Assembly (NCBI GenBank): GCA_965112155.1
Contig: OZ218107.1
DNA length: 64,000 nucleotides
Strand: one strand, 5' to 3'
DNA from: Podarcis liolepis
Lineage: Eukaryota
The stretch's first letter is position 1; every line of letters begins with the position of its first letter. The translations under genes were made by a program, and so were the position numbers. Below, piece after piece: positions 11,150 through 63,110 of the stretch. Below the pieces are notes generated by a model. That model ran no database searches. It saw only the letters and a list, made by a program, of their open reading frames with translations, and was not told the DNA's origin.

Positions 11150-12740
11150 CTGCGTATTTCTGCGTTCGGGCCCCTAGGACTTTTAGTCTCCACATCAGCA
11201 CAAGTATCATATAAATGCCTCCGGGCGTTTTTTCACACCGTGCGTGCCTCCCTCGATCCAATATAACGATCGCACTGCGGAGGAGTTCCGCCGTTGCAGA
11301 AATAAACAAAACTCTGTTATGGATGATTCGGGAGGCACCTTCTTTTTTAAAAAAGGAAGCCCCGCGTCGTGACACAAGCAGCTCCTCAGCAGAACTGTTG
11401 CCTTCCGACGGGAGGAGAAGTTGGGCGGGCAGGGAGGCGTCGGGAGGGCGGCCCCCCCCCGGTGAATCAGCTCCTGTGGGTGGCGCATTCTCCAGGGGGC
11501 GCCAGGACTGCAGCCTGCCTGCCTGCCGATGCCATTTAAAAAGTGCTCCAGCCCCGAGCGCGCCGGGTTCCTCGCCTCCTCGAGTTTGAGGAGCGGAAAT
11601 GGCCAGCGCGGGAGAAGCGCTTTGTTCTTTGGCGGCGGCGGCGCGGCGGTTCGCGTGAGGCGCTACAGGCCTCTCTGGCGGGAGGGCAGGAGACGGAGAA
11701 GCGAGCGAGGCGGGGAGGCGCGCCGGCCCTGAGGCGAAGGGTGTGCGAGCCAGAGCGCGGCGGGGCTTCTTCCCTCATCTTCTTCCGCGAGCGCCCTCGG
11801 CCCCCTTGACGCGCCCGGCTGGGGTGGAGGCACCGCGTTCAAAAGCAGCGCGAGCCCAGCAGCTTCCCTCAGTGGCTGCGGGGGACGCCCGGGCGTCGTC
11901 GGAGAAAAGGCTCCCGGGACCCCGAAGGCTCCTCTCCTTGCCCGGGTCTTGCGGGAACTTTGTTCCGGCGGCGCCGCCGGGAGGATGCTGGAGGGCGGCT
12001 GCAAAGCCGTGAAGGAGGGCGTGCTGGAGAAGCGGAGCGACGGCTTGCTGCAGCTGTGGAAGAAGAAGCGCTGCATCCTCACCGAGGAAGGGCTCCTGCT
12101 CATCCCGCCCAAGCAGCCGGAGCTGGCGGCGGCGGCGGCGGCTCCTGCTCCGCCGCCTGCTGCTCCTCTCCCCGGCCTGGAGACGACGACGACGAGCGCG
12201 GCGCCCTCCGTGGTGGCCAAGATCAAGGAGCTGCCCTTCTCCACCATGAAGACGGTGGACTGCGTGGAGCGCAAAGGCAAGTACGTGTACTTCACGGTCG
12301 TGATGGCCGAGGGCAAAGAGATCGACTTTCGGTGCCCGCAGGAGCAGGGCTGGAACGCCGAGATCACGCTGCAGCTGGTGCAGTACAAGAACCGCCAGGC
12401 CATCCTGGCCGTCAAGTCCACGCGGCAGAAGCAGCAGCACCTCGTCCAGCAGCACGGGCCGCGCCTGCGGAGCGCCTCCAACTCCGCCTAGCCGGGCCCC
12501 GGCCAGGGCAGGTAGGAGCCAGGCGGGGAGAGGGCAGCTCTCCTGCCGCCGATCGCCCCGCTCCCCTTTGCAGCCCTTCCCCAGCGCCTCTCTGGAAGAA
12601 GCCTTCCAGACGGATTCCCTAACAATCACCTCTCTCGGCTGTCTTAGTTTTGCCCGGCGAAAAGTGCCGTGTGGGTGGCAAACTCGTGTTGCTTCCCTGA
12701 AGCGCGCGTCTGGATGGGCAGCCCGCTTCACGCGCGCGAT
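11150..12740 (+). promoter_or_regulatory. PHLDA1: CpG island covering the PHLDA1 promoter and first exon
   Basis: Abrupt switch to GC- and CpG-rich sequence; GC boxes, ETS-like CGGAAA (~11595), TGACG half-CRE (11807) and TATA-like TTCAAAAG (11838-11845). Confidence 0.85.
11985..12491 (+). CDS. PHLDA1: Pleckstrin homology-like domain family A member 1 (TDAG51), 168 aa, single coding exon
   Basis: ATG at 11985 (gggaggATGc); [44 protein letters not shown]...[69 protein letters not shown]...SNSA is the PHLDA1 split PH domain and C-terminus; position next to NAP1L1 distinguishes it from PHLDA2/3. Confidence 0.96.
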
Positions 12741-30905: not shown

Positions 30906-31361
30906 GGATTCAAGTTAATTACGTTAGACATGCCTTCTGTGGAAATCCTATAGGAATCTGGTGGCGTGTGACTTGGGCCTTATTGCCAAGTAAACATGGG
31001 TGGTTAGGCATTGCGAATGATTGCTTCAATGTGAATTAAATGTGGCTGAATTTGTTCATATGGATTCTAAGTTCAGTATCTACCTTGATCCATACTTATA
31101 AAGGTTTAAGTGTGTGTGTGTGTGTTAGTCCCTCTACTGAAATGACAAAAAAACACTGCATGTGGGAAAACTGAGCGCAAAAAATTGTTGCACCCAACAT
31201 CAGTCACTGACTGGGTCCTATCTGGGTCCATTCACAGTAGGAGCACAGGTGACATAAGCAGAGCAAGGTGTACTCGGAAAGAATCTCACCACAGTTGCAT
31301 TTTGTAGCAGAAACTTAGGCCAGCCTCTGACCCCCGTGCCAGCTTGTTCTGATACATGGTA

Positions 31362-31581
31362 CAGTGGTACCTTGGGTTAAGAACTTACCATAATTCTTTC
31401 TGGAGGTTTGTTCTTAACCTGAAACTGTTCTTAACCCGAGGTACCACTTTAGCTAATGGGGCCTTCCACTGCCGCCGTGCGATTTCTGTTCTCATCCTGA
31501 AGCAAAGTTCTTAACTCGAGGTACTATTTCTGGGTTAGCGGAGTCTGTAACCCGAAGCGTCTGTAACCCGAGGTACCACTG
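31362..31581. mobile_element. Tc1/mariner (Tigger-like) MITE
   Basis: Same family as 15803-16026; CAGTGGTACC TIRs, TA TSD. Confidence 0.9.
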
Positions 31582-33069
31582 TACTTATTAATCTATAGGA
31601 TTAGTGCATGGTGGAATATTACCATTTTAACTGGCACACATAAAATATGAAACCCAGCATTATAGAGACATTACTCATTGTATTACCGCACTGATAGCTG
31701 ATTTGAAAAAGTGTCATGGGCTATTTTGAAAACAGTATCGCATTCCTTTCCAAGTGCATCATTCTACAGTGCTCATGACAAACCACGGTAATTGCTAGTT
31801 CCTAGAAATGATTGCACAATATATACATACTTTTTTATTTAAAAAAATTGAAAACACACCCATCTACAGCATATTAATCTGTTCATGCATTAGTGAATAT
31901 TTTTCATGCTTCATGGTTGACTAGCCTGACAGCACCGCAGAGACGTTCAGAATATGGCACAGATTTGGCCTTTCTCATATGACTATAAGGTGCTGGTGCT
32001 TCTCTTTTAAAGACCTTAGAAGCTTGAAATCTATATGTCTGAGAGATGTTTATTCATATTTGAGCTTGTTTATCAAAGCTGGTTTGTGGGGAAAATGCAT
32101 TATATCATAGAAAGAAACGGGATATGTCTGGATCCAGGTTAATATAGAAAACACCACCACCAGTGCACACTAAATACATACTAAACTGTAGTGTGCACAC
32201 AGCCTCACAAACCAGTTTTGATGTGAAGAGAGACTGATGGAATTCAGCCTTTTATAGCTGGCATACACTGGATCAGTGTTTTAATTTTTTTATTCCTTTC
32301 CTAATATATCTAGCAGATACGCCACCTTTTTTTTGCAGCTTCTGCACATTGGGTCAGTGTTCCAGTTTTTCTTATTTTAGATTTTAGCAATCTAGGCCAT
32401 TCTAAAGAGCTCTTTTTATTTCTCTCCAGATTGAGAAATAATAATTCATACAGAGTACTGTTGCAATGTTTGAGCAACTCTGTTGATTTCATCAGGAAAG
32501 TACTCTTATTGAGGTCAGTGGTACTGCCACATTGAGGACATGGGTCATCAAGCCCATGTTGCAATAAACCATATAAATATTTTTTTTCCAGTTGTATTGT
32601 TTCAACATTGTATATTCTTCAAGGTAACAATTACTATGTTATCTCACACTCCATAGTCATCCACATTGTATTATTGAGCTGTTTTCATATGTCACCATGT
32701 AACTTCTACTAAAAATACTACTTCCACTGGCCGATCTTTGTATCACAGTTTTATAATAGGCTAGTATTGCCTAGATTGTGTGGCTAATTCTCACTGACCC
32801 TGGAATGAACCATATAATATGAATTTCTCAGTTTGTATGTGCTACAGATGAGATGTGGATCCCCTTAGAAGTAGCATTTTGGCAAGGAGCATACCGTTAT
32901 GAAAATCAGCAATTTCTAAATGCTTATCTAAATGCATATATTCTTGGTAGATCTTCAGATTGCTGAGGAAACAAGATGTAGAATTATAGCAAAAGCTAAC
33001 GAAATGCCTTCTGAAGCAGTAGAAAACCGCTGTGGCAGGTCCTATAATAAAACAAACCTTCTATTTATA

Positions 33070-33290
33070 GTTACAGATAGGTAGCCGTGTTGGTCTGCCA
33101 TAGTCAAAATAAAAAAATTCCTTCCAGTAGCACCTTAAAGACCAACTAAGTTAGTTCTTGGTATGAGCTTTCGTGTGCATGCACACTTCTTCAGATGTGT
33201 ATCTGAAGAAGTGTGCATGCACACGAAAGCTCATACCAAGAACTAACTTAGTTGGTCTTTAAGGTGCTACTGGAAGGAATTTTTTTATTT
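33070..33290. mobile_element. Penelope-like element terminal-repeat (pLTR) insertion arranged as a perfect inverted repeat
   Basis: Arms 33107-33196 and 33201-33290 are exact reverse complements with loop GTGT; nearly identical to the pLTR of the GIY-YIG element at 40462-41037; perfect 12-bp TSD cttctatttata (33058-33069 / 33291-33302). Confidence 0.92.
33199..33236 (+). ncRNA. Minimal hammerhead ribozyme motif in Penelope pLTR
   Basis: GUAU-CUGAAGA-A-[GUGUG CAUG CACAC, stem II]-GAAA-GC-UC^-AUAC: core CUGANGA/GAAA/UH, helix I GUAU/AUAC, palindromic AGCU in place of helix III. Confidence 0.75.
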
Positions 33291-34123
33291 CTTCTATTTA
33301 TAAGCATTCTTAATCTACACTTTTTATCAACTACTGGCTTATCTGATATTTCTATGTCATTACAGAAGACATGGCAATGGCAAGGTACCAAAGAATGTAT
33401 TCATTATGGAAAAATATATTGGGCTACATAAATACACACACACACATTCACTCACTCACACTCAATCACTGAGAAGAAGGGGGGCTCAAACTGTATAAAT
33501 GGCACGTGCAGGCCCGGTCCTTGTGTGTGCCAGCCCCACTCTTATTCTGTTGACGTGTTCAGTGTGTAGAACTGAATGAAGTTCTACTGCACATGAATGA
33601 AGAATCTCTCTAAAATGAGATTTTAAAATCTACATCTTTGGTAACTCAAAGATCACATGATTCTTTTTGTAAGCAAAGTACTTTTCTTTTTAAGTCACTT
33701 GGAACCTTTTTCATCTTTATTTTACTGCCAGAAGATGGAGACTTGCTTGCGGTAACTTCTGGAAACTGTGAGTAAAACGTTCACTTATTTGCAAAGCTAA
33801 GTGTCTATGATTTATTCTAGCCTATGTATTTTTTGTGAGGAATGTTTGTTTATAGTTGGATGTGGGCAAATGCAAATTTAACCATGTTTCAGTGTGTTTG
33901 GATCAATCACCATTATGCTTAACTCTGCTATGAGAGAGTGAAAGGATGTCTCTCCAATAGTTCCAACAACAGGAGTTGCAGTGGTCTAATTAAAGATAGT
34001 GCCCCCACCTTCTAAAATATCATTGAGCCCAGGTGTCCTGTTAGGCCCAATGGGGGCCATATTTGGTCCACAAGACCATAGCTCCCAGTACACATTCACT
34101 TGTCCCACTCTCTGCATCATATA

Positions 34124-34381
34124 CTGTGGTACCTCGGGTTACATACGCTTCAGGTTACATACGCTTCAGGTTACATACACTTCAGGTTACAGACTCCGCT
34201 AACCCAGAAATAGTACCTCGGGTAAAGAACTTTGCTTCAGGATGAGAACAGAAATCGCACAGCAGCGGCGCGGCAGCAGTGGGAGGCCCCATTAGCTAAA
34301 GTGGTGCTTCAGGTTAAGAACAGTTTCAGGTTAAGAACAGACCTCTGGAACGAATTAAGTACGTAACCAGAGCTACTACTG
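34124..34381. mobile_element. Tc1/mariner (Tigger-like) MITE in opposite orientation, with three tandem 16-bp units
   Basis: TA TSD; same family as 15803; internal ggttacatacgcttca x3 (third unit has one substitution). Confidence 0.88.
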
Positions 34382-35114
34382 TACAGGCCTTCACTTCAGA
34401 AGTAACTGCTTGAAAACACACTTAAAAGGAAAAGTCTCTCAACTCCCATCAACTGATGAGCACTGAGAGACAGCCCTTTGAAACCACTTGGAATCACAAC
34501 TCAAAGGCAATGGCATCAACTGTATGATTTAGAAGAATAAAAATTAATCATGTGAAAAATGAGGCAAGAAATATTTGATTGGAGGGAGTAGTAAAGCGGC
34601 AAACTTTCAAAGCTTAGTTTTTCCAGTGGATAAGGTCTCTAGTTAACTCGGATCCTTTCAGTTTAAGTGACTGGGAGCTGCACATTTCCACATCCCCAGT
34701 AGGAGATCGCACAGATGTTTTTGTATTTTCTATTTCTATTTTCTTCCCATCAACCCGCTTTCCAATATTGCTGTGAGCAAAGAACTGTGAAAAGCCAAAG
34801 GACAGGAACAGACAACTTTTAGCCAGTGAGCTGCCTTTTCCTCACCAAATTCTTGCAGGATGACAAACTGCAAGCATATTGCACAAAACAACAAAAATCA
34901 TCTGTCCAGCTAAATATGGTTGCCAGCATTTTATTGTCTGAGACATTTCAAGGGCATTTCCAAATTACTTCAGTATTTATCAGACACTGTGTTGCAGCTC
35001 TTACAACATGCCTCATGAGTTGTCCATGATGCAGTTTTTATTGCTGCTAGTCTTTTCTTCCCAGATATCCTTAAATATTGTGTGAACACCATCCGGCATT
35101 CATTACAGAAAGTA

Positions 35115-35604
35115 CCGTATTTTTCGCCCCATAGGATGCACCGGCCCATAGGACGCATCAAGTTTTTTGGGGGGGAAATAAAGAAAAAAAAAATTATTTC
35201 CCCCCCAGGCGCTTGTGGGGCAGGCAGCGGGGAGAAGCGCTCTTCTCCCCCCCGCCTGCCTTGCGATCAGGTCCGGGGACAGCAGGGAGACGCAGCGCGT
35301 CTCCCTGCTGTCACCGGAGTGGTGGGGCAGGCAGCGGGGAGAAGCGCTCTTCTCCCCGCCGTCAGCCTCCAAACCACTTCGGGAGACAGCGGGATGGCGG
35401 CGTTCCGCCTCCCTCTGTCCCCCGACCTTGTGGGGCTGGCGCTGGGGCTCTCCTGAAGCCTGGAGAGCGAGAGGGGTCGGTGCGCACCAACCCCTCTCGC
35501 TCTCCAGGCTTCAGTGAAAGCCTGCATTCGCCCCATAGGACGCACCCACATTTCCCCTTCATTTTTAGAGGGGAAAAGTGCGTCTTATAGGGCGAAAAAT
35601 ACAG
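35115..35604. mobile_element. Tc1/mariner (Tc2-like) MITE with GC-rich internal repeats
   Basis: TIRs CCGTATTTTTCGCCCCATAGGA / TCTTATAGGGCGAAAAATACAG; TA TSD; internal duplication of gtggggcaggcagcggggagaagcgctcttctcccc. Confidence 0.88.
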
Positions 35605-35818
35605 TAATTTACTAGCTTGTTACCATCTAAGGTGCACTTCAGCAGAAGTTTAACAGCTAGCATCTGGTCCCATTAACCTCACTCCAACCTTGTTGTCTTA
35701 ACCAGGGTTTGTGTGGAGCGTGGGGTGGCAATCCTCACTGCTGCAGATGACCAGCTCACTATTTTTTGCTGCCAATGGCAGCCATTTTGTGCTAACATCC
35801 ACAGTACCTTTATCAATA

Positions 35819-39899: not shown

Positions 39900-40356
39900 T
39901 TTTTTGTTTTTTTATATAAAATATTTATTGAGTTTTCACAAATTATATAAACAGACACGATAATACAGACAAACACAGACAAAAAAGAAAAAAACAAGTA
40001 TAATTTCAAATCCTTATTTTCTTAAAACTTACTTCACCGACCTCCTCATACCTCCCCTTTCTGCATTCCAATTTCAAAAATTAGTTCAGCAAATCCTTAC
40101 CCTTAATTTTATCTAATTGTTAACCTTTCTTTTCTTTTGACTTAATCTTTACAGCTGTAATCCACTTAATTTCTAAACCAACATCATTCTAACATTCATT
40201 AATTTTGCAATGTTTCTTAAGATAGTTCTTAAATTTCTTCCAAACCTCTTCTGCCGTCTCTTTCCCCTGGTCCCGGATTCTGCCCGTCATTTCTGCCAAT
40301 CCCATATAGTCTATCACCTTCATCTGCCATTCTTCCAAGGTGGGTAGATCTTGTGT
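39900..40356 (-). mobile_element. 5'-truncated L1-clade LINE (end of ORF2, 3'UTR, polyA)
   Basis: TQDLPTLEEWQMKVIDYMGLAEMTGRIRDQGKETAEEVWKKFKNYLKKHCKINEC*, homologous to the ORF end at 56671; T-rich tail; perfect 10-bp TSD aagacaattg (39890-39899 / 40357-40366). Confidence 0.9.
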
Positions 40357-40461
40357 AAGACAATTGCGCATCCATTGCATTAGAGAACAGCCTGGTTAAT
40401 TCATGAGCATGTGAAAAAGGCAGGTGAGTTCAACATCTGATACTTTCAAGGAGTATAAGAA

Positions 40462-41037
40462 TGCCAACATCAAATACCAACAGTGTCCTTCAACTCTCTA
40501 TATTGGACAAACAGGCCAAACCTTACGCCAAAGAATAAACGGACATAAATCAGACATCAAGAATCACAAAACAGAGAAACCAGTAGGAGAACACATCAAT
40601 CTCCCAGGACATTCTATACAAGATCTCAAAGTAGCTGTTTTATTACAAAGGAATTTCAGAAATAGACTGGAAAGAGAAGCTGCTGAATTGCAACTCATTA
40701 CCAAACTTAAAACCATGGAGAGACCTGGTCTCAACAGAGACATTGGATTCTTATCTCATTATACAAGACTAGCCATTTTTCACCTTCTCACCCCTTGCCT
40801 TTTCCTGTAAGACCTATTGCAGTCGTTAAGAGTCGTCAACAGGCTCATCTCAGCTATCTGCCAATCACCCATTCCCACCACCCTTCTGAGTAATACCCCT
40901 CCCCACCTTCTCACTATATAGAAGGATCTGGCAACTTCTGTTTCAGTGTATCTGAAGAAGTGTGCATGCACATGAAAGCTCATACCAAGAACTAACTTAG
41001 TTGGTCTTTAAGGTGCTACTGGAAGGAATTTTTTTAT
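40462..41037 (+). mobile_element. 5'-truncated Penelope-like element: GIY-YIG endonuclease coding end plus pLTR with hammerhead motif (40948-40985)
   Basis: QQCPSTLYIGQTGQTLRQRINGHKSDIKNHKTEKPVGEH...RNRLEREAAELQLITKLKTMERPGLNRD is a Penelope GIY-YIG domain; TSD tataagaa (40454-40461 / 41038-41045). Confidence 0.9.
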
Positions 41038-42228
41038 TATAAGAAAAAAGCAGGTGGAGGCAGGCAGGGATAGGCCTGCTTCCCATGGTAGAGATTTGTG
41101 CGTATGTTTTCTTTTGATTGCGTTTTGTTCTAAGGAAAAAGGCTTTGTCAGGACAAGCTGACAGGGTCTTCTTAAATATGGGATTATTTTTTAAAGAAGA
41201 AGTGCTCTCTGTGGTTCCGGTAAATAAAGCTGTATGACGGGTAGAGTTTCTGATTTACTCAAAAATCAATATTCTTTTTCGACTGAAGATGCTGGAATTA
41301 CCTTCTTTCCTAACAGCCAGAGCAAACTGCTGGGCTCTGTGCAGGTGTGAGACAGGAAGTAATTATCAACAGCAGCCGCCATGCAGAGATAAAAAGAAAA
41401 TAAAGATTCTAAGCACCATAGGACTGTTAACCTATTCTGAGTCAAATTGCTTCCCTTGTGATGTTGCAGCTAACTACTGCAATGTCAGGATTTTAAAACA
41501 AAGTACTGACATTACTGAAGATCCATACAATTCAGCTTCTTTGCTTGTGGTTATGTTCAGGGAGAGAGAGAGAGAAGTCAGTTTGTTCATTGGGAGATGC
41601 ACTAGAAATAGTAATTGCAAACATACTGTATTGTCACAAAAGTTGGGTGCCACCCCCACTCTCTGCCGAGTGACAGCAAGATCCCAGGGGGGTCCAGGCG
41701 CTCACCCAGGGTCTGTGTTCCCTTTGGAACAGTGTTTCTCAACCTTCCCCCCCCAACTGTGGCCCCCTTCTGATCTTGTTTCCTTCCTGTGTGCCCCCCT
41801 CCCCCGCCCTACAGGTAGAAAGGTAGCTATTTTAATGTTTTGTTTGTCAGTAGAACATGTTTTATTTATCACTTTTTAATAATTTCTACAAAATACAATT
41901 ACACAAAAAATTGTACTTTTAAGTATTTCTCGATCAATGCAACCCTTGTGCTTGATGACCAGAAACAAGCTTTGTTTTATATATCCGATTCTATTGCTGT
42001 GAGAGATAACTGAAGATCACCTCAGTCCATTATGTTAAGGTGATTCCACATTAGGCTGAGTAAATAATTCACGCAACTGAAACCTGATTCTACCAAATAC
42101 GAAGTAGGAAATGCCATGAAAAACACTTTTGTTTTATCCCACAGATGTGGATACTTTTTAGATATTGTACTCCATTCCAATGTTATTTTGCCCTTGAAAA
42201 AAGGACTCCAGGAAGGACTCCATAAAAT

Positions 42229-48580: not shown

Positions 48581-48718
48581 CAGCTAAGTTGGTTAGAGCA
48601 TGGTGCTGATAACACCAAGGTTGGAGGTTCGATCCCCATAAGGGACAGCTGCATTTTCCTGCATTGCAGGGGCTTGGGCTAGATGACCCTCAGGGTCCCT
48701 TTCAACTCTATGATTCTA
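48581..48718 (+). mobile_element. tRNA-derived SINE with CR1-type tail
   Basis: A box agctaagttgg and B box ggttcgatccc, then ...ttcaactctatgattcta tail. Confidence 0.85.
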
Positions 48719-54434: not shown

Positions 54435-55463
54435 TAATTCTATGGGACTTACTTCACAGTAGACAGGGTTAGGATTGCGTTAGGACATAACCTAGAATTA
54501 CTGTTCCCCTGAAGGGGATAAAACTGCTCTTATTTCTGTCATCTGAAGAGCAACCTGACTGCCTTTGTTCATTAAGGTATTTAAAAGTGTATACTTTTAG
54601 TATTTGCTTGTTTCTATGTTACTTATTTAGATATCAGTGGCAAACGGATCTGACACATTTGGTGCGTTGTTAGAGTAAGCAGTTATTCAGTGAAGCAGAA
54701 AATCAAATAAATTGTAGCACACTGAATTATTCATATAATTTATCTGCTGACTTGAGAGATAATTACTATTGCCGGAAGAACGATTGCCAGTTTGGTGTGA
54801 TATAACATGGTATCGTCTAATGAAAACGGACAGAAATGGGATTTCACCCCCTCTTCAATCTAAGAATAAAAGTTATGAATAAAGGCTGGGGTTTTTTTTA
54901 CTGGTTTTTTTAAAGTAGTGGGGCTTGTTCCCTTAATGAGCTGTAACTGGAGTTGTTTGGCTGTGATGTCAATGTCAATCAAAGCTTTTGCTTGGAGCAC
55001 AAACTACCATCTGCTCCTCTTGGAGCAGACATGAGCAACTGTCTCTCTGACATAATAGAAGCAAGCGTCAAACCCATTCAAAGAAAGAAAAAGAAAAACA
55101 ATAGTATCTTGCCGAGGAGGGTGGGGCAGTCATGGAAGACCTATATTTTAACATACATAGAGGTTGAATGAGGCACCACTTGGCTAGCTTCCCAGATGCT
55201 CCAAATATTCTAATGAAAACCATACAACTTATTTAGAAAGCCAGAACCAATTTCTTGTACTGCGACCCTTTCCAACTTCCATGTGATATTCCATTGTTGT
55301 TGGGTTTGGTTTTTTGCATGCATGCATATGAACATTACACAGAAAGAGTAGCCCTAATAGGGTGCTTTTCTCTCCATATGTGTAGCATCATGTGGAGACA
55401 TAATAGGACCATGAGCAAGAGCCCACTCTGTTGTTCCATTCCCTTCTGGCTGTACCTCATGCT

Positions 55464-57821
55464 CATAGGCGCCGACTCCATGGGGCTTGAGGGGGCCCGA
55501 GCCCCCTCAAAAATTCGTTTGGGGGGGCTCAGCCCCCCCAATAATCTCGGGCGGCGGTGGGCGCGTCCGCGGCTTTTATAGGGCGCCCGGCGCGCACCAG
55601 CTCGATAACGGGCACCGGCGCGGCGGGGGGCGCCGGGCCGGGGGAGGGGGGCGGCCGGCCTGTCTCCTTGGCAACCCCATTGAGCAGCGCCGGCTCCCCC
55701 GGGAGGGCCATCCCCCCGCGCCGCCGATCGCCAACACCGCCGACGCTGTGGCTGCCCGAGCCTGAGCCTGAGCCCGAGCCCGAGCCCGAGCCAGAGCCAA
55801 AGTCCGAGCCCGTCAGTCAGTCAGTCAGTCAGTCAGTCAGTCAGTCGAAGGAGAAATGGGGAGGGAGACGAGGGAGGAAAATTGCGCGCAGGGTGAAGAA
55901 AGGAGAAGGGTGAACAAGACGAGCTTCCAACCCAAAAAAGGGCTGGAAGACTGGGAGGATGCAGGATCAGGAAAGAAAGCGACGCCTTCCCCGCCCGCGA
56001 CGTTGCCCGCTTGTCATTGGCAGCGCAGCGGGCGCCCAGAGGGGCTGGGCACCGGCGCAGGGCCGCTCCGCAGCCGCGGAGGACAGCTGCGCGGCTAGCA
56101 AGGTGCGCCGCGTAGAGCGCGGCCCTTGTGTGGCCCGGTGGCCAGGCAAGCTCGGGCGGGGACCCCCATGCGAATCTAAGACGGGAGAAGAGGGCAGAGC
56201 AAAGGGGGTCCCTTCCCCAACCTCAGGCTCTGAGACTTCCCTGCGCCCCAGAAAAGCGAAAGGATTTTCTCTTCTTCTTTTTTTTTAAATATTTTATTAA
56301 GTTTTCAAATACAAAGTTAGAAACATACACTGAAGAAAAAAGTAAAAGAAAAAGAAAAAGAAAAAAAGAAAAAGAAGAAAAGAAAACCAACCATTCAACA
56401 CATTTTTATATAACTAACTGGACTTCCTCGCATCTCCCTTACCCTGCATTCTTTATAATAAAGATATCAGCAAATTATTACCTTGTTTCGTACCTTATTT
56501 TGTACTTTTCAAATACTATACCTCTAAATTTAACATACTTTTCATCAGTTACTTATATCTTAAATTAAACATAGTATTACCTTAGATTTTGACCTTTTCT
56601 TACTTAAAATATAATTTCCTGTTTCCCAAATCTAATTGCTGAAGCTATAGTTTCCGAATCGTGTAAATTTTTAACATTCATACAACTTATATTGTTTTTG
56701 TAAATAGTCCTTAAATTTTTTCCAGTCCTCTTCCGTTGTTTCTTCTCCCAAATCTCGGATTTTGCCAGTCATTTCAGCCAGTTCCATGTAGTCCATCAAT
56801 TGCGTCTGCCACTCTTCCAGTGTGGGCAAATCTTGTGTCTTCCAATATTTTGCGATAAGTATTCTTGCTTCTGTAGTTGCATACATAAAGAAAGTTCTAT
56901 CCTTCTTCAACACTTTCTGGCCAACAATGCCCAAGAGGAAGGCCTCTGGTTTCTTGGGAAAGGTATACTTAAATACCTTTTTTAACTCATTATAGATCAT
57001 TTCCCAGAAGGCCTTCACTTTTGGACAAGTCCACCAGAGGTGAAAGAATGTCCCTTCAGCCTCCTTACATTTCCAACATTTATTATCAGACAGGTGATAT
57101 ATTTTTGCAAGCTTGACTGGGGTCATGTACCACCTATAAATCATTTTCATAATATTTTCCTTCAAGGCATTACATGCCGTGAATTTCATTCCGGTGGTCC
57201 ATAACCTTTCCCAGTCCTCAAACATGATGTTATACCCAATATCCTGAGCCCATTTTATCATGGCTGATTTGACTGTCTCATCCTGAGTGATTTTCTCTTC
57301 AACCTGCCCTCCATCCTCTTGCAGAAAACTCTTTGCCTGCCCTGCCCGTATCTCGTTTTTGCTTTTTAATTCCACACACGCACCCTTCGGACTTCGTGGC
57401 AATCGGGCGCGCAGGTGCGTTTCCTAAGAGAGTGAGGACCCCCGCCTCCTCCCCACCTGCTCCCTCGCCAGCCAGCCAGCCGCGCGCCCTAGCCGGAGAG
57501 CCCCGGCCGTCCCTGTCGCGCAATCGGCTGGATCTCCCTTCAGCAGGCCGTGCTCACAACTCGGCCCAGGGACCCCCAGCAGCGGATCTCCGGCTCAGCT
57601 GAAGAATCCGGCAACAAGCCCCCTCCTCCCCAATCGCTCCGCCAAAATACGCTCCAAAACCCCCCAGATAGGCCGCCGGCCGCCAAGTCTAGTGGCGCCC
57701 TGAGCGAGGGTCTCTCCCCAACACCGCCACCTCGAACTGCGTTCTCCCGGCTACCCGAGCGAACCAGCGGCAGGACCCCGGTATGGGCCCCCCCAATATT
57801 TTTTATAAGTCGGCGCCCCTG
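55464..57821. mobile_element. Non-autonomous hAT-type transposon (2358 bp) with CpG-rich cargo and a nested L1
   Basis: TIRs CATAGGCGCCGACT / AGTCGGCGCCCCTG; perfect 8-bp TSD ctcatgct (55456-55463 / 57822-57829); no transposase ORF seen. Confidence 0.9.
56275..57288 (-). mobile_element. Young 5'-truncated L1-clade LINE; open ORF2 C-terminal frame 56671-57288
   Basis: KCWKCKEAEGTFFHLWWTCPKVKAFW zinc-knuckle motif; no stop codons over ~205 codons; polyA tail; perfect 12-bp TSD gattttctcttc (56263-56274 / 57289-57300). Confidence 0.92.
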
Positions 57822-58927
57822 CTCATGCTGGAGGAAGATCTGGAGAGGAAAGCCTGCGGAACATTAATAGGCTGCCCATCTGATTGGTGCTCAACAGGCT
57901 TCTGGATTCAAGCCACCCCAAAATGTGTGAACTGCACGAGGGTGAAGCCATCCAGGAATGTAGCAGCTATCACTCTTGGGATGGGTGCTGGACTTCAAGG
58001 CACAGAGCTGATAATGGGCCCTCCCTCCCAACTAGAGCAGGGCAGGGCACAGCTGAGCTTGGTCCTACTAGAATGTGACATACTCTGCTGAGGGGGGAAA
58101 ATATCTGAGGCTCCCATAGTGAAGGACAGCACAGTTGGGTCAGGCCACTCTATAGCCCTTGGCCAGTGCCTGACTTGAATGCTTGCTTGTGCCGAATCTG
58201 AACTCTCCATGCAGTGTTACTTGGATGGAGACCAAAAGCTTTACTTAGAGCCTGAGGAATTAAGCAACACATGAGGATGGGTTCCCAGATCTGGTACTCT
58301 CCAGATCCTGTGTTGGTGCTGTGTTTTGCTTACTGTACCACTGTGGTTTGTTTTGATTTCTCTCCCACCCAATGCTGAGCTGCTGGACTGCAAATAATAG
58401 TGTGGTGGTGTCACAAGGGAAGGAACCTGCCACTTGGGATATTCTAGCATCAGTATTTGCTCTGTTTTTATAACCACTAAAAGACCATAGGGAGCTGATG
58501 CTTCCAGAAACATGAACTGGAACCTTAGAACCCAATCCTATCCAAATTTGCTCAAAAGTAAAGTCCCTCTGAGTTTAGTGAGAACTTGCTCCCAAATTTG
58601 TCCATGGGATTGCTGTAGTCTTAGTCTGACAGTCATTTGATTGACATCCCATTTGCAGTGTGGGGCCCAGTTGGCACCTATTTGGAGGGCTGGAAGCACA
58701 TCAGAGTATATCTTTCACCCACTGATCCTTGATTGGCTAACTAGGCTTGGCTCCAGAACTTCTCTAGCCCCTATAGCAACAGAACCAAAATGAAAGTTGA
58801 TGCATGAGGCAAGAACTAGTGAGTTCTTTTTGAAACTTTGTCTGTGTGCTGCAACAGCCAGAATTTTAAGATGTCACAAGGACTAAAAACTAGAAACAAG
58901 TCTATTCAGAAAAACCAAACTAGGCCA

Positions 58928-60996: not shown

Positions 60997-61104
60997 TCGA
61001 AACAAAATAAAATTAAAAAAAAATTCATTCCGGTAGCACCTTAGAGACCAACTAAGTTTGTTATTGGTATGAGCTTTCGTGTGCATGCACACTTCTTCAG
61101 ATAA
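60997..61104 (-). mobile_element. Penelope pLTR-only insertion with hammerhead motif (~61066-61104)
   Basis: Reverse complement reads atctgaagaagtgtgcatgcacacgaaagctcatacc; TSD ctttctttcgtaa / ctttcttttgtaa. Confidence 0.85.
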
Positions 61105-62539: not shown

Positions 62540-63110
62540 TCATCCACCAGCTGCCTAAGAACTTCTCCCACTAAGTTGACCAAGATGGTCTTGGCAGTCA
62601 TACTGGGGGACTGCAATGTCCATGTCGACGCAACCTCCTCAGGGCAAGCTCCGGACTTTAAGGTCACTACCACAACCATAGGTCTGTCTCAGTACACTGT
62701 GAATCTAGCTCATGTTACAGGTCAATCTTCTTTTTGCAATAAGAGGGACTGATGTGTACATAAATTAACTCCATTGTCGTGGACAGACCACTGCCACTGA
62801 TGGAGGAACAGGGGTGTGGGGGGAGTGCATTGCCCCCGGTGGCACGATTCTGGTTGGGTGCTGTTGCGGCTGCCCCCACTCGCGCTGGGCACCATGCCCC
62901 CAGGACACACGCCATGCCCCCAGGACACACGCCACGCCCCCAGGACACACGCCACGTCCCCAGGATGCACACCAAGCCCCCAGGACGCACACCACGCCCC
63001 CAGGACAATGAGCCATGCCCCCAGGACGTGTGCCAGCCACGCCCCTGCCTGCTCTCTGCTCCCCCTCTGCCGGAGCTTGAAGCTCCGCCGCTGACCACTG
63101 CCTGGTGAAA
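62540..63110 (+). mobile_element. Degraded L2/CR1-group APE endonuclease fragment split by a hAT MITE
   Basis: ILGDCNVHVDATSSGQAPDF...TTIGLSQ, and TPLSWTDH(C)LV once the MITE is removed; these match the GDFN and SDH endonuclease motifs. Confidence 0.7.
62795..63093. mobile_element. hAT MITE containing a 20-bp minisatellite
   Basis: Perfect 8-bp TSD accactgc (62787-62794 / 63094-63101); TIRs CACTGATGGAG / CTCCGCCGCTG; about 7 units of gccacgccccCAGGACacac at ~62890-63045. Confidence 0.85.

Follow-up and report, generated by a model that had tools for sequence, protein, structure and literature searches.

Pack-TIR elements are recognised by 100-5000 bp of non-TE sequence lying between the two ends of one TIR element, together with a parental copy that is at least 90 % identical, unique, 80-120 % of the cargo length and not flanked by TEs (PMC8277862). 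Most of the Pack-TIRs reported from animals arose by gap filling, exist as one copy and have stayed in place, and four multicopy families were counted among 370 (PMC8277862). The gap fills have a median cargo of 224 bp and 57 % of them lie within 15 kb of their donor, whereas the four multicopy families are distal; multicopy cases tend to have GC-rich cargo and are explained by a template switch and a later transposition (PMC8277862). The survey lists none from Anolis, garter snake or painted turtle, for which the TE annotation was very thin (77, 3 and 330 DNA TEs, respectively; PMC8277862). Non-autonomous hAT elements, in turn, are described as having TIRs of 10-25 bp, an 8-bp target site duplication (TSD), subterminal repeats and no coding capacity (PMC3942097).

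The element described here lies at 55464-57821 of the window, i.e. the whole 64-kb stretch of lizard DNA that was analysed, between two exact copies of the octamer ctcatgct. It is a real hAT-type Pack-TIR, a class of element already described, and its cargo, from a developmental gene, is unusual in size and GC-richness. The ends, the 8-bp duplication, a fragment of TAL1 and an L1 that inserted later into the cargo can all be read directly from it.

Ends of the element and their relatives

The two TSD copies occupy 55456-55463 and 57822-57829, and the 14-bp TIRs 55464-55477 (plus strand) and 57808-57821 (minus strand). The imperfect TIRs and exact TSD of the original prediction were confirmed, with 12 of 14 and 8 of 8 positions matching. 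The left subterminal region (55478-55545, plus strand) contains a hairpin formed by an inverted repeat and three copies of a 12-bp G/C-run motif, starting at 55501, 55518 (inverted) and 55532, and the right subterminal region (57781-57807, plus strand) contains a fourth copy starting at 57787. The left end is thus ~82 bp and the right end ~41 bp. When the window was scanned for an exact 8-bp repeat next to 14-bp TIRs with at most two mismatches, two matches were obtained, compared with none in 30 block shuffles, a lenient null since shuffling destroys real repeats. The second match, at 31457-34291, is due to a dispersed repeat that occurs twice, in opposite orientations, at 31359-31571 and 34166-34384. 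The two copies are 2.6 kb apart and, with a palindromic flank of 8 bp, resemble a TIR element.

Based on the TIR length and the 8-bp duplication the element is assigned to the hAT type, as had been proposed, and the four subterminal motif copies are also as described for non-autonomous members. The ends look somewhat Tip100-like, although assignment to the Ac, Buster or Tip group would require a transposase. No open frame for a hAT transposase was present in the element and Pfam matched none of ten cargo frames, in agreement with the transposase-free interior that had been predicted; the element encodes no transposase and is therefore not an autonomous hAT.

A pattern search with the right end returned nine metagenome contigs with two end types and eight different downstream flanks. 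The right subterminal region is 87 % identical over 31 bp to these multicopy ends, and all of them terminate at the same base as the right TIR. By this comparison the nine loci confirm that the right boundary is a real mobile-element end. The contigs look eukaryotic, and the end type is thus common to the lizard and to distant organisms. All nine loci were single ends: no partner end was found in any of them, nor, when long frames were checked by eye, an autonomous partner of the element. Literature searches with the TIR letters gave unrelated results only. Rfam had no match anywhere in the element, and the 64-kb window holds no second copy of it.

Other repeats were observed in the window. 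A second small hAT-like element at ~62797-63094 is flanked by an exact 8-bp duplication but differs in its ends, and its interior is a 20-bp minisatellite. Palindromic short repeats at 33108-33299, 40946-41038 and 61005-61103 are 91-99 % identical to each other and likely represent a very young MITE family, and a weak tRNA match (29.7 bits) within a dispersed repeat at 48582-48638 is likely a SINE head.

The TAL1 fragment and the remaining cargo

With the nested L1 removed the core is 1,332 bp long, with a GC content of 0.66 and a CpG o/e of 0.83, compared to 0.42 and 0.33 for the whole window, and the CpG-rich core of ~1.33 kb that had been predicted is thus real. Between the two ends of the single TIR element there are 1,217 bp of non-TE sequence without the L1, which is within the size range of Pack-TIR cargo. 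The part abutting the left end (55547-55768, minus strand) is a coding fragment of TAL1/SCL, corresponding to residues 36-109 of 376. It is identical to Podarcis raffonei TAL1 in 71 of 74 residues (96 %), with unbroken identity over residues 38-105. When the minus-strand frame beside the left end was used in a protein search, 25 of 905 candidates matched, 24 of them named TAL1 and one unnamed, with a best E of 5e-31; the matched proteins are squamate TAL1/SCL. By this similarity the host would be a lacertid, probably of the genus Podarcis.

On the strength of this match the cargo is host DNA and TAL1 its donor gene. The suspected capture of host sequence was thereby borne out and the donor named, although the recognisable cargo is an internal coding exon instead of the promoter or first exon that had been expected. 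At the protein level the identity over these 222 bp is above the 90 % used for parental copies. The element, whose donor is a haematopoietic master regulator, is a clean and young squamate case of a Pack-TIR.

An ordinary GC-rich MITE, or a promoter native to the locus, has a negligible probability. A MITE with a GC-rich interior does exist in the window (35115-35605, GC 0.61, CpG o/e 0.72), but for the TAL1 block both readings are refuted, since 222 bp enclosed by the TIRs and the exact duplication encode TAL1 with an identity of 96 %. The MITE at 35115-35605, which we take to be of the mariner type, is flanked by TA and has an internal duplication of ~120 bp.

The fragment contains neither a start codon nor the bHLH domain (residues 244-295), and a functional TAL1 paralogue was rejected on these grounds. 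Because the bHLH is missing, a DNA-binding TAL1 protein cannot come from the element. There is no other TAL1 sequence in the 64-kb window, and a local tandem duplication was therefore rejected as well. An ORF of 60 codons (55529-55711, minus strand) runs from the internal Met55 of TAL1 to a stop inside the left end. There was no sign of its use: it is absent from the protein collection and short relatives were not found. None of three cargo ORFs was found in the collection, and none of four candidates was a short TAL1-frame product of another copy.

The hexamer and tetramer tracts that had been noted earlier were both located. The hexamer tract (55754-55812, minus strand) is in frame with TAL1 and encodes Gly-Ser repeats; it is likely an expansion of the Gly-Leu/Gly-Ser codons (GLGLGSGS) of TAL1 itself. 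As inferred from the alignment, the fragment has ten extra codons compared to TAL1 between Asp34 and His42. The tetramer microsatellite (55812-55846, 8.8 copies) follows at a putative deletion junction.

Next to it, at 55846-55919, there is a mixed C/T pyrimidine tract on the minus strand, the sense strand of TAL1, which is likely the acceptor tract of an intron. It reaches 87 % pyrimidine over 60 nt and lies within a 156-nt stretch free of AG that the microsatellites have lengthened. On this strand 42 nt separate its end from the Asp34-like codon that follows. A value of 87 % was reached by three of 12,788 sampled segments, the tract itself counted, and the 64-kb window contains six tracts with at least 85 % pyrimidine. 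No acceptor AG remains at the tract. TAL1 isoforms diverge just before Met6 (MKSKW-MLMER and MG-MLMER; in another isoform MKSKC continues into a later exon), and the native exon therefore likely starts ~85 nt before Asp34. With regard to a capture of DNA as against that of a retrocopy, the TAL1 match is confined to one exon, the MKSK codons of the upstream exon are absent, and the intron-like tract adjoins. The simplest reading of the tract, on this circumstantial evidence, would be the end of a TAL1 intron from which the acceptor and about 28 codons have been deleted.

The rest of the cargo is GC- and CpG-rich, non-coding and without protein match. It consists of a middle block (55920-56262), likely TAL1 intron, and a right block of 480 bp (57301-57780). 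GC content is 0.65 in both 55847-56262 and 57301-57780, with CpG o/e of 0.80 and 0.88, respectively. The ~0.9 kb is likely intron, as judged from one tract and its position, and no link of the right block to TAL1 was found. One frame of each block was used in protein searches, which are blind to non-coding donors: the right-block frame matched none of 11 candidates and the middle-block frame none of 1.84 billion representatives. One ESM Atlas query of the remaining cargo gave no usable match.

The cargo of plant Pack-MULEs can be mosaic, and the original prediction was likewise of cargo drawn from several loci. The TAL1 block would then have been acquired in one of a series of captures, each of a CpG-island piece from another gene. 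The TAL1 match does end at a microsatellite, at least 28 codons short of the exon start, the composition changes along the cargo, and ~0.9 kb has no identified donor. However, the acceptor-like tract that closes the upstream block is on the TAL1 strand, and the protein searches, which miss non-coding donors, revealed a second donor in no frame tested. A mosaic is thus rather unlikely; one donor, TAL1, was found and the other frames tested were blank. The abrupt changes in composition are present as described, but they can be understood as transitions within one gene, from intron to pyrimidine tract, to microsatellites that have expanded, and to exon, and a single contiguous capture of intron plus exon is the probable explanation.

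Age, donor location and origin

The L1 in the cargo (56275-57288, minus strand) is a 5'-truncated copy of 1,014 bp with the ORF2 C-terminus, the 3' UTR and an A-rich tail. It is flanked by exact 12-bp target duplications at 56263-56274 and 57289-57300, and its 201 open codons match residues 1069-1223 of human LINE-1 ORF2p with an E of 2e-13. As this duplication lies inside the cargo, the L1 insertion postdates the capture. Transduction mediated by the L1 was rejected, since the L1 bears its own duplication inside the cargo. A further L1 3' piece at ~39900-40360 has the same orientation and is 70-75 % identical to the nested one.

The absence of amino-acid changes over ~67 codons bounds the neutral divergence at roughly 2 %, which indicates a recent capture. 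The young age that had been proposed is thus supported. Undecayed CpGs, cited earlier as a sign of youth, say little alone because the ordinary, presumably mariner-type MITE of the window has an o/e of 0.72.

The donor is likely on another chromosome. The PHLDA1-like protein of the window is on record on a contig of 79,254,795 bp, whereas the contigs with TAL1 measure 95.5-102.2 Mb in the five lacertid assemblies compared, a comparison across assemblies which need not include that of the window. Capture in trans is thus likely. The PHLDA1-like ORF (11985-12491), which we take to be PHLDA1, is a single exon of 168 aa within a 1.4-kb CpG island. A protein identical to its product is on record, and a PH match below threshold was all that Pfam gave. 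From its end at 12491 the distance to the element is 43.0 kb, as had been stated (~43 kb downstream) for a gene that we call PHLDA1-like.

Public sequencing runs were searched with 85 words sampled from 55464-56274. Among the 24 runs listed, 18 contained at least half of the words, and there were 20 holders from ten studies. Runs of six organisms contained 0.60-0.69 of these left-half words. At most 24 % of the words can come from the TAL1 block and 7 % from the left end, while the middle block accounts for 51 %. The TAL1 block and the left end thus supply too few words, and the middle block must also be present, in near-identical form, in all six organisms. These shares are compatible with the donor locus itself, with an insertion at the orthologous site and with a multicopy family. 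Three assemblies of 3, 6 and 9 Mb from one study had 0.60-0.61 of the words, which would be expected of a high-copy repeat and equally of a library enriched for CpG islands. There were no RNA runs among the listed holders; two runs guessed to be RNA, and this is a guess only, had 0.15-0.18, near the 24 % share of the TAL1 block.

The account that we favour, at about even chances, is that of a non-autonomous hAT-type element which would have acquired part of a TAL1 exon and ~0.9 kb of the upstream intron by one template switch in break repair, and would then have been moved as a unit by transposase made elsewhere. A short element with about 100 bp of end sequence may have broken and been repaired from the open, GC-rich intron/exon region of TAL1. 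The splice acceptor and the first ~28 codons would then have been lost, with two microsatellites growing at the junction, and the composite would have jumped to a different chromosome with transposase supplied from elsewhere. Both ends retain their TIRs and subterminal motifs. This order is favoured because the multicopy class is the better match for an element of this size and GC content, whose ends are intact and whose position is likely in trans.

The 8-bp duplication is compatible with capture followed by a jump and equally with capture in place, in which a short resident hAT MITE was gap-filled here with TAL1 DNA and the single-copy composite never moved. Gap filling is the common route in animals, with an empty TE in outgroups in 91 of 97 primate cases (PMC8277862), and at this locus the same 12-bp motif occurs on either side of the cargo and the ends would form a 103-bp element. 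Gap fills are, however, mostly small and in cis, whereas the cargo of the present element measures 1,217 bp and its capture was likely in trans. The 12-bp motif, moreover, occurs three times at the left end and also in related ends elsewhere, so that it need not be a junction scar. We consider capture in place unlikely and prefer the template switch followed by a jump.

Possible function and comparison with described elements

The element is most likely a neutral, non-working passenger. Whichever its origin, the copy could have a role as ectopic promoter or as chromatin island, or yield RNA matching TAL1, but the probability of this is very small. We take the captured exon to be the counterpart of human TAL1 exon 4. 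That human exon contains an alternative promoter which is in contact with distal enhancers and is marked by H3K27ac or H3K27me3 (10.64898/2026.05.03.722504, PMC2816701), and an ectopic promoter is therefore conceivable. The CpG o/e of the cargo blocks (0.80-0.99) is also comparable to that of the PHLDA1 island (0.89). The CpGs are, however, explained by youth alone, the island is split by the L1, and of the exon the cargo has just the 5' part, which may or may not include the promoter. Similarly, it is improbable that a multicopy lacertid Pack-hAT family spreads the TAL1 intron/exon CpG island, planting enhancer-responsive or Polycomb-bound islands beside unrelated genes and making TAL1-matching RNA that feeds back on TAL1.

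Gene capture by TIR elements is already documented in animals, and the main survey has only four multicopy families. Should the present element prove multicopy, it would be among the very few amplified Pack-TIRs of vertebrates, and its copies would serve as a natural experiment on whether a CpG island of a developmental gene, once moved, remains free of methylation and attracts Polycomb. A single, methylated copy would be a tidy relic of repair or transposition, of modest interest. No report of TAL1 capture or of a lacertid Pack-TIR was found in the literature at the level of titles and abstract openings, with few subscription journals covered, and a term search of the supplements of Tan et al. 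2021 did not find the word TAL1 (PMC8277862).

Non-autonomous hAT elements share the TIRs, the 8-bp duplication, the subterminal repeats and the lack of coding capacity with the lizard element, but their interior is deleted transposase, whereas here it is host gene DNA. In the plant Pack-TYPE elements (Pack-MULE, Pack-hAT) the TIRs similarly enclose gene fragments, preferentially GC-rich 5' regions (PMC8903248); the lizard element differs from them in its short TIRs with an 8-bp duplication, its vertebrate host and its one identified donor. The multicopy Pack-hAT-N8_XT of Xenopus tropicalis has in common with it the non-autonomous hAT ends, host gene cargo, intact duplication, GC-richness and likely distant donor (PMC8277862). 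With 1,217 bp the cargo is considerably larger than the 291 bp of Pack-hAT-N8_XT or the animal Pack-TIR median of 224 bp (PMC8277862), and compared to other animal Pack-TIRs the lizard element is set apart by a cargo that includes coding sequence for a transcription factor of development and that microsatellites and a nested L1 have remodelled.
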